From Euglena gracilis (Eukaryota): DNA of 64,000 bases. Both the position numbers and the translations under genes were made by a program. The notes beneath the pieces were generated by a model. The model did not search any database, had not been told where the DNA came from, and saw only the letters and a list, made by a program, of their open reading frames with translations. The stretch lies in NCBI GenBank assembly GCA_039621445.1, contig CP154954.1, positions 8,496,634 to 8,560,633 on the forward strand, in the 5' to 3' direction. Below, piece after piece: positions 52,584-55,500 of the stretch (positions are counted from its first letter, which is position 1; each line of letters opens with the position of its first letter).

Positions 52584-55500
52584 GGGCAGGGCCCCTCGAT
52601 AGCGGGCCGCGTCATCGCCCCACCGCGCGACTGCCATGCCTCCCCCCTGGGGCTCATTTTCGCCCATTTTTTTGGCCCATTTTTGACCTTTTTTGGCCCA
52701 TTTTGACCATTTTTGGCCATTTTTGGCATTTTTTTTGTGCCCTCAAAAGCGAAAACTGTTACCGTCCAGCGCCCAAATGGCGGCTGGAAATGAAAAATCT
52801 CGTTGATGGGGGGGGGGAGGGGGGGCTGGGTCTGGAAAACGGCTGCTGGCTGGCTGGTCAAACTTTCTGAAGCAACGCCCTGCCCTCAAAGCGCCCCCCC
52901 CCTCCTTGCATCTAAACTGGGACTTGACTTGCGGTCTTGGCGCCTCCTTTTATGGTCCGCCGAACTTCTTACCATGGGAGCTTGGCCCCTCAAGGTTGGC
53001 GCGGTGGCGAGTGGGAAGTGTCACTTGTGTCAGCTCTGTGTGTGTCATTTTTTGGCATTTTTTTTCTTCACAAATTTAATTGTTGGTTTCGCGATTTTGA
53101 CAAAATGTCACCGGTCGCCGGGCGCTGTTCTTTTTTGTCCTGCTGGAAAGTTTGGCCAAAGGTTTTTGGAGCCGAAATTGGTCATTTTCAACCCTGGGAA
53201 GTTGTCATTTGGCATTCATTAGTTGGCAAGTCCAGTGAAAATGTCCAGGGAGGGATTCTGTATCGGACGAGGCTTGCTGTTCACCCGAAGGTGGAAACAT
53301 ACCATTTTCCAATTTAGCATTGCAGCATTTCCACATTTTTTTCAACGGTTGTTTGCGTCGCAAGGTCAAAGCTTGCTCACGCTTGGTCTCCAAAGTGCCC
53401 CTGTAGTTGATGGGGAGGACGTCTCTGAGAGCACTGCCAGCCACACCTTCATCCCCGGCCAGGCCTCAACCCTGCCCGAAGCCCGACCCATCCACCCACC
53501 CACCCACCCACCCACCACACCACCAAACCACACCCACCCACATCCAATCACACCCACCCACCCACCACCCACCCACCCAGCCAGCCACCCACCCACCTAC
53601 CCACCCACACGCACGCACACACGCACACACGCACGCACACACACACACACACACACACACACACACACACACACACACACACACACATAGAGATAGAGAG
53701 AGAGTGAGAGTGAGCGAGAGCGTTAAATAAACTCAAATGCGTGCACACACCAAGAACCACACCCACCCACCCACCCACCCACCTACCCACCCACCCACCC
53801 ACCACACAACCACCCAACCACACCCACCCACCCACCCACCCACCCACCCACCCACCCACCCACCCACCCACCCGCCCCACCCACCACCCACCCACCCACC
53901 CACCCACCCACCCACCCACCCACACACACACCACACCACACCACACACACCACACACACACACACACACACACACACCACAACACCACACACACACAACA
54001 CACACACACCACACACACACACACACACACACACACACACACACACACACACACACACACACACACCACACACACACACACAACACACACACACACAGAC
54101 ACACAAACACACACAACCACACACACACACACACACACCCACACACACACCCACACACACACACACACACACACCACACGCACAAACACACACACACACG
54201 CACGCACACTCACTTCACTCACTCGCACGCACGCACGCACGCACGCACGCACTCACTCCCTCACTCACTCACTCACTCACTCACTCACGCCCCCACCCAC
54301 CCACCCACTCACTCACGCACGCACTCACTCACTCACTCACTCACTCACTCACTCACTCACTCACGCACGCACTCACTCCACTCACGCACGCACTCACTCA
54401 CGCACGCACGCACTCACTCACTCACTCACGCACTCACTCACGCACGCACGCACGCAACTCACTCACACGCACTCACGCACTCACGCACCCACGCACACAC
54501 TCACTCACGCACGCACACTCACACTCACACTCACACACACACTCACACACGCACACACTCACGCACTCACGCACTCACTCACGCACTCACGCACTCACGC
54601 ACTCACTCACTCACTCACGCACTCACTCACACACACTCACCACACACACAACACTCACACCACACACACACACACACCACCACACACACACACCACACAC
54701 ACACACACACACACACACACACACACACACACACACACACACACACACACACACACACCCACCCACACACACCCACCCAGCCAGCCACCCACCCACCTAC
54801 CCACCCACACGCACACACGCACACACGCACGCACACGCGCGCACACACACACACACACACACACACACAGAGAGAGAGAGAGAAACACACACATGCGTGC
54901 ACACACCCAGACCCACACCCACCCACCCACCCACACACACACACACAAACGCACACAGCAGGAGGCTGCGGTCTGTGACCAAGGTTCTAACCACTAACGA
55001 TGTGCTGCTGGAGGCGGTGAGTCAAGCTCAACGCCTTGTGGGTCACCGCTCCTCTGTAAAGGAGGTTCGGGTTCAGGCTGTTGTATTAATTTTTCCTTTT
55101 TTTTTCACTGCCGAGCCCACGCTGGAAGCAAGCTTCTGCTTCCGGTCCAATTTCTGGTGGACCTCCCGAGGTGGGGGTCAGGCTGTATTTTAGTCGGGTG
55201 CCGACCCCACCCCGGGGGGGGGGTGCCTGCCTGGGCAGGCACCCCAAGGCACTCCCAAGCCGACCCCCCCCTGGGGGGGGGGGGCACACGACCAAAAGTG
55301 CCCTAGCACAACCCCGGCGCCGAAGGCGCCGGCGAGCCAAAAATGGCCTATTTTCAAAGGAATGTGCCCGGGCACAGGCCGAAATCCGACCCCCCGGGGT
55401 GGGGTAGTGCCTGCCTGGGCAGGCACTCACAGGCACTCCGGACCCCCCCCTCTCCCCCCCGGGGTTGGTAAAAAACAGCCTGGTGGGGGTGCAAGCCCCC

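Follow-up and report, generated by a model that had tools for sequence, protein, structure and literature searches.

A 64,000-nucleotide stretch of the Euglena gracilis genome (assembly GCA_039621445.1, contig CP154954.1, positions 8,496,634 to 8,560,633 of the forward strand; hereafter the window) contains two related elements, which we call A and B. Element B, 304 nt long, is very probably a non-autonomous cut-and-paste DNA transposon, that is, a miniature transposable element with inverted repeats (MITE), with CAGG...CCTG ends and an 8-bp target-site duplication, which inserted into a non-coding site and belongs to the same family as element A. Element A lies within a coding exon and is removed from the transcript, together with 8 nt, as an intron that lacks canonical ends. 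The kinship between the two supports the older idea that such introns of Euglena-like protists began as transposons.

Element B and its homology to element A

To delimit element B, we inspected its ends and flanking sequences. The two flanking 8-mers are identical at all eight positions and lie directly at the ends of the element, and the + strand of the window has only three occurrences of this 8-mer. The terminal inverted repeats match at 13 of 14 positions. Judged from the list of open reading frames, without a profile search, the frames across the 304 nt give only translations of G/C runs. B thus combines the traits of a MITE: inverted-repeat ends, a target-site duplication of fixed length at those ends, a short non-coding body, and dispersed copies.

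Global alignment of A with B was collinear from the first base through the last. The blocks in common were the CAGGCT start, TTAGTCGGGTGCC, the GGGCAGGCACC palindromes, the GGCGCC(A/G)AAGGCGCC hairpin, GGCC..ATTTTCA, and GTTGGTAA near the end, and blastn gave 65.7% identity over 286 columns. The local alignment score was 99.5. Because this genome is rich in G and C runs, two controls were used. In 300 dinucleotide-preserving shuffles of B, the mean score was 23.0 (standard deviation 3.7) and the maximum 37. When A was compared on both strands with 1,218 other 304-nt segments, from which the loci of A, B, and the third copy C described below had been excluded, the mean was 14.5 and the maximum again 37. 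A 21-nt subterminal motif, alike in A and B save for one base, had two matches in the window when up to two mismatches were allowed and none in 100 shuffles; a metagenome scan returned no locus with this motif. The homology between A and B is genuine and well above the low-complexity background. The initial annotation had ascribed to B the architecture of A and a perfect target-site duplication of its own. The duplication was confirmed letter for letter, every listed block was present in the collinear alignment, and the likeness included non-repetitive blocks and so extended beyond G/C homopolymers.

A third, reversed and interrupted copy had been proposed at 47425–48078. Its 3′ half scored 75 against B; for 1,029 background segments the 99th percentile was 33 and the highest score 49. 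The proposed 5′ part scored 27.5, no higher than the 99th percentile for 1,030 background segments; its collinear alignment with B makes it a plausible but marginal piece of the A/B family. The 364-nt gap between the two parts is a different repeat, with further copies at 45419–45769, 7676–8012, and 3132–3284. Since the gap belongs to another repeat, a later insertion has split C, which is itself a member of the family. The 3′ half and the interruption of the proposed copy therefore stood, and the 5′ part held only marginally. The interrupting repeat represents a second family in the window, about 350 nt in length and rich in GGGGGTTTATAGG-type words.

Removal of element A from a coding transcript

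Transcripts of the region around A were examined by mapping reads and contigs at 90% likeness on positions 1–15300 of the window. The data comprised run X15 (presumed RNA contigs), runs X21 and X24 (raw RNA reads under the same species label), and run X1 (DNA contigs). An RNA joint from 8773 to 9066 skipped 292 nt, which equals A (284 nt) plus one copy of its duplication (8 nt). Support for the joint came from a single X15 contig (depth 88), a single X21 read, and four reads of X24. No contig in the DNA run X1 carried it, though X1 contigs entered A from both ends. The X24 joint reads had their first mate on the − strand, which points, by the stranded-library convention, to a + strand RNA. A repeat of GGCTGGACC lets the joint slide by nine positions, and every placement of the intron from 8774–9065 through 8783–9074 yields an identical mRNA.

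The X15 contig with the A joint chained eight more joints, and ten introns in total were placed in the gene, which occupies 4273–15190 of the window on the + strand. When the exons from 5919 to 12379 were joined, one frame was open for all 211 codons, and the other two contained 12 and 1 stops. The RNA joint and the open frame together show that A splits a coding sequence and that the mature message lacks it. Reverse-transcriptase template switching at the 9-nt repeat was judged an unlikely source of the joint, because the other nine introns were equally noncanonical with repeats of only 0–2 nt, and because the frame was open only with A removed. Assignment of A as a GT...AG intron (GTATGG...AAG) or as a GC-AG alternative was also tried, and neither agreed with the RNA joint.

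Inspection of the intron borders revealed no GT-AG, GC-AG, or AT-AC ends in any of the ten introns at any allowed slide position, and none of the 10 slide positions of A offered a canonical option. A spliceosomal "introner" identity was thereby ruled out, and the introns are of the euglenid type. Nonconventional introns of Euglena are reported to follow the code N3-CAG...CTG-N5-6, then a purine, with CAG at +4 to +6 and CTG at −8 to −6. In that code, 3 nt precede CAG and 5 nt, with 6 tolerated, follow CTG; the formula accounts for 61.2% of such introns according to its authors (PMC12501133). These introns are reported to leave the RNA as full-length circles (PMC11282704, PMC12501133). A noncanonical pattern of this kind has been reported only in euglenids, and other forms have been described in diplonemids (PMC6221363, PMC12621601); the host is accordingly taken to be a euglenozoan that splices in the Euglena manner. 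In most of the ten introns found here, the bases from position +4 onward can pair with the stretch 6–7 nt before the 3′ end, and four introns (7553–8546, 9099–9349, 12380–12776, and 12791–14049) fit N3-CDG...CH'G-N5-6/R exactly, where the slash precedes the purine. The last two flank a 14-nt micro-exon at 12777–12790, which was placed as the unique match of 14 extra letters in the RNA joint from 12379 to 14050.

The 3′ motif of A is ATG instead of CTG, which creates a G.A mismatch at the third terminal pair. In a published test intron, each single change tried in CAG/CTG abolished splicing (PMC12501133). Since A is spliced despite its ATG, the published code is incomplete. Perhaps A owes its splicing to the 13 terminal pairs, out of 14, that do form. 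Its stem is part of the minimum-energy fold, with a pair probability of 0.88–1.00 at positions 1–2 and 4–14 and of 0.00 at position 3, where the mismatch lies. Ends of the CAT/TAT...ATG/GTG type were also found in two further elements of the window, E935 and E59721 (Table 1), and in two RNA-verified introns. The natural code thus looks wider than the published formula.

We propose that a host with nonconventional splicing of the Euglena type would remove such an element from RNA whenever it has inserted into a transcribed region. The paired inverted-repeat ends would direct cleavage to points 3 nt ahead of CAG and 5–6 nt past CTG, and these cuts would take out the element plus 8 nt and restore the pre-insertion message. 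The sum of the two spacers, 3 + 5, equals the 8-nt duplication, so that the cuts would remove the element and one duplication's worth of sequence, as in the A joint; the spacing would then mirror the 8-bp duplication. This equality was not found stated in PMC12501133, where a text search gave only the −8 position of CTG. A broader proposal, to which we give slightly less than an even chance, is that nonconventional splicing of the Euglena type undoes insertion exactly, at the RNA level, and is tuned to a single transposon superfamily. Elements with C(A/G)G-~8 nt-TTAAG ends would then be the ancestors of most such introns, copies like B would form a living reservoir, and the splicing machinery would read the paired ends. 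If splicing does reverse insertion in this manner, the cutting machinery may be kin to the transposase, or else to a circle-producing pathway of endonuclease and ligase.

Inverted-repeat elements with 8-nt duplications in the window

We scanned the window for pairs of inverted-repeat ends that matched at 12 or more of 14 positions and lay 60–1500 nt apart. A tandem palindrome cluster at 30.9–32.7 kb and simple-sequence repeats were excluded beforehand. In six of the 666 pairs obtained, the 8 nt abutting the two ends formed a perfect direct repeat; 16 other offsets together gave five. When one mismatch was allowed, the numbers were 13 abutting pairs and 24 for the other offsets together, an average of about 1.5 at each. 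The 8-nt duplication is thus specific to the position at the ends. No enrichment was observed in a duplication scan that filtered out two-letter duplications, such as that of B, and ATG ends, such as that of A.

At least eight elements of the window have inverted-repeat ends and an 8-nt duplication: E935, A, E14528, E41750, B, E57563, E58888, and E59721. The ends of all eight consist of C(A/G)(G/T), about 8 nt, and then a TTAAG-like word. Their interiors are mostly unrelated; clear likeness was found only between A and B, and E57563 has some modules in common. The common end form suggests a single kind of transposase. The flanking 8-mers differ among all eight elements. We infer that the elements were moved at the DNA level by a transposase, whose superfamily we leave open.

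E14528 sits within the RNA-verified intron 14158–15190, and intron-nested copies therefore occur. The pair probability of its stem was 0.90–1.00 at positions 1–12. In E57563, the first three pairs alone were predicted. When E57563 or E58888 was removed together with 8 nt, + strand frames joined in register (KPTVA/ARMEVS for E58888), and on the evidence of the reading frames both elements are probably nonconventional introns (predicted lengths 289 and 316 nt) in a gene that lies shortly downstream of B.

The abundance of the family was estimated from the DNA run X1. Contig depth summed to 299,775 in the 510-nt bin that contains A, in comparison with 44 and 41 in the adjacent bins, and at least 124 distinct X1 contigs covered position 8940 at the centre of A. 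In X21, 16 RNA reads matched inward from 8782 and diverged upstream (consensus agreement 0.42), which places the family boundary exactly at the inverted-repeat end. The initial annotation had regarded the coding-sequence intron as a member of a dispersed mobile family and not as a local hairpin. This view is upheld by the homology among A, B, and half of C, by the distinct target-site duplications and the inverted repeats, by the nested insertion in C, by the X1 depth, and by the removal of A from RNA.

Setting, origin, and relatives of element B

We then considered whether B, which had been described as a free copy inside an intron, could itself be spliced. B matches the published code in both orientations, as GGT-CAG...CTG-GTGGG/G on the + strand and as CAC-CAG...CTG-ACCCCC/A on the − strand. 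By this match B may itself be removable from RNA, so that its "free" status is only putative, and it would presumably be spliced out if transcribed. With B and 8 nt removed, no coding-looking frame was found across the insertion site. The frames that are open across the junction (up to 100 + 21 codons) run through microsatellite or low-complexity sequence, and B follows a 1.4-kb CA-type microsatellite that ends about 200 nt upstream. The lack of a coding-looking frame and the adjoining microsatellite place B in non-coding DNA, be it intronic, intergenic, or part of an untranslated region. A codon-usage scan at a strict threshold gave nothing beyond 44 kb, and at a relaxed threshold it gave weak exon candidates near B. 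Of the protein searches for mapping exons near B, one returned two fragment matches only and another returned none.

Folded alone, the terminal stem of B formed with a pair probability of 0.94–1.0. In the − orientation with the flanking sequences, the probability was 0.2–0.45. Several observations weigh against the reading of B as a MITE of the kind that supplies nonconventional introns. When the + orientation was folded together with its native G-rich flanks, the stem had a probability of 0.00, and forcing it cost 14.6 kcal/mol over the minimum-energy fold. The stem predictions with flanks thus caution against assuming that B is splice-competent. The RNA mapping covered the region of A, and B lies outside it. 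A, the spliced member of the pair, itself misses the published code. The two copies are only about 66% identical, and by this measure they are one family but different subfamilies. The X1 contigs are short, so that the depth over A may reflect modules common to several families and not whole copies. Finally, comparison of 20 open reading frames of the window with Pfam yielded no transposase and two sub-threshold matches only.

That B is at present a working nonconventional intron, nested in a larger intron or in the untranslated region of a + strand gene, is possible if somewhat doubtful. Its fit to the code in both orientations favours this alternative, as do the nested copy E14528 and the in-register frames around E57563 and E58888, which lie 2–4 kb downstream of B and suggest a nearby + strand gene. 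The lack of a coding-looking frame over the junction and the predicted failure of the + orientation stem with real flanks speak against it. The alternative is compatible with a MITE origin, as one MITE can be both. Spread through RNA is another proposal, in which excised intron circles would be reverse-spliced or reverse-transcribed into new sites without a DNA transposase. The reported circular, full-length excision (PMC11282704, PMC12501133) and the absence of a visible transposase in the window agree with such a route. An excised RNA would, however, bring along the 8 nt of its parent, but all eight flanking 8-mers differ, which renders this route very unlikely. Inverted-repeat ends with a fixed 8-bp duplication are moreover the mark of cut-and-paste elements, and no coding frame runs through the site at which B inserted.

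The remaining explanations concern the likeness between A and B itself. Chance similarity from common G/C runs and palindromes would draw on modules in which the window is indeed rich, as B scored up to 63 against 57201–57504 and 47.5 against the segment at 62601. At the level of the window it is nevertheless scarcely credible, since the A–B score far exceeded the maximum of both the shuffles and the background segments, and the alignment was collinear and included non-repetitive blocks. An origin of A and B by segmental duplication or gene conversion is equally hard to maintain. Segmental duplication was rejected because the likeness stops precisely where the inverted repeats do and because A and B are each bordered by a different duplication; the X21 reads that diverge upstream of 8782 fit many copies in different flanks.

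Of the known transposons, MITEs of the hAT type resemble the cut-and-paste element proposed for B in their 8-bp duplication, their short ends starting with CAG, their small size, and their lack of coding capacity. The 8-bp duplication is found in B and in the other elements of the window. The terminal consensus of hAT elements is YARNG; CAGGC of A and B agrees with it only in part, at 4 of 5 positions, and CAGGG of E57563 fits. Merlin transposons with autonomous copies have been reported in Euglena gracilis and are a candidate source of transposase. Their duplications of 8–9 bp (8 bp in the Euglena gracilis elements) agree with those found here, but their ends are described as starting with GG (PMC8101967). 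None of the eight elements has the 5'-GG-3' start, as all of them begin with CA or CG. A search of the whole 64-kb window against Rfam gave no matches.

The euglenid nonconventional introns (Milanowski et al. 2014/2016; Nomura et al. 2025, PMC12501133) are described as having noncanonical borders, CAG and CTG at set positions, pairing ends, and "slidable" junction repeats. A is removed in just this way, and B carries the signals by sequence. A differs in its intact 8-nt duplication, its sister copies, and its ATG as the 3′ motif. Introner elements of Micromonas, Aureococcus, and dinoflagellates are likewise reported as families of short inverted-repeat transposons that make introns, with the target-site duplication aiding exact removal. 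They are, however, spliceosomal, with GT/GC-AG sites derived partly from the duplication, unlike the introns here, which lack canonical ends (PMC11282704). The MITE-derived introns of the tunicate Fritillaria borealis are also reported to be noncanonical, with inverted-repeat ends and target-site duplications; a modified U2 spliceosome is reported there, whereas euglenid introns are reported to leave as circles (PMC11282704).

A MITE origin of euglenid nonconventional introns was proposed in 2013, when no euglenid transposable element was known (PMC3935182). It was repeated as a suggestion in 2024–2025 (PMC11282704, PMC12501133), and both the origin of these introns and the mechanism of their removal are still described as unclear (PMC12501133, PMC3935182). 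The MITE idea itself is therefore published, and B is a fresh case of the intron source already hypothesised. In the literature searched, we found no description of sequence families of nonconventional introns with sister copies outside genes. The locus offers a concrete and testable case, in which a verified nonconventional intron with an intact target-site duplication stands beside a non-coding sister copy and a third copy broken by an insertion. At least five further elements with the same end architecture in the window make the MITE-origin hypothesis testable. Such an origin would also account for most Euglena introns being "slidable".

Table 1. Positions of the elements, their parts, and associated features in the window.
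Feature	Position	Strand	Remarks
Element B, probable MITE of the family of A, 304 nt	55179–55482	+	End-to-end alignment with A; recovered by the scan for inverted repeats and duplications
B, left target-site duplication GTGGGGGT (gtgggggt)	55171–55178	+	Same 8 letters as 55483–55490
B, right target-site duplication GTGGGGGT	55483–55490	+	Same 8 letters as 55171–55178
B, left terminal inverted repeat CAGGCTGTATTTTA	55179–55192	+	13/14 match to the reverse complement of 55469–55482
B, right terminal inverted repeat, end CAGCCTG	55469–55482	+	Pairs with 55179–55192
B, central hairpin GGCGCCGAAGGCGCC	55316–55330	+	Common to A, B, and C; found in E57563 too
Element A, family member in coding exon, 284 nt	8782–9065	+	Flanked by GGCTGGAC at 8774–8781 and 9066–9073
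Intron with A, 292 nt, placement predicted by the published N3/N5 spacing	8779–9070	+	RNA joint; code of PMC12501133
Copy C, 3′ half	47430–47607	−	Aligns to B 119–297, score 75; 71.4% over 185 columns
Copy C, proposed 5′ part	47983–48077	−	Collinear with B 3–105; marginal
Other repeat, nested in copy C	47609–47972		75.8% over 372 columns to 45419–45769
E935	935–1362		Perfect 8-nt duplication; CAT...ATG ends
E14528, 402 nt	14528–14929		Inverted repeats 13/14, first 12 all match; perfect duplication ACCCGGGG
E57563	57563–57843		Inverted-repeat ends; perfect 8-nt duplication GATGTGAT
E58888	58888–59195		Inverted-repeat ends; duplication GTGGCAGC/GGGGCAGC, one mismatch
E59721	59721–60180		Perfect 8-nt duplication; CAT...ATG ends

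Downstream of the mapped part of the gene that contains A, two + strand frames (26325–26567 and 28664–28843) presumably resemble the catalytic domain of adenylate/guanylate cyclases, and the enclosing open reading frames had no Pfam match at E ≤ 0.01. These frames may be later exons of the same gene.

Other repeats were also noted in the window. Clusters of a 43–44-nt palindromic unit (TTGGTGGGGCCGCGGCCGGCCGCGGCCCCACCAA-like) at 31066–31481 and 32136–32498 swamp naive searches for inverted repeats with duplications. Repeats with 17-nt (CCCCCGGGCAATTGACG) and 43-nt units occur at 49724–50183 and 26097–26190, in clusters about 24 kb apart. Microsatellites of the AC, CACA, and ACCC types, up to 1.4 kb in length, are located at 44228–45389, 53486–54957, 56419–56772, and 60972–61188.

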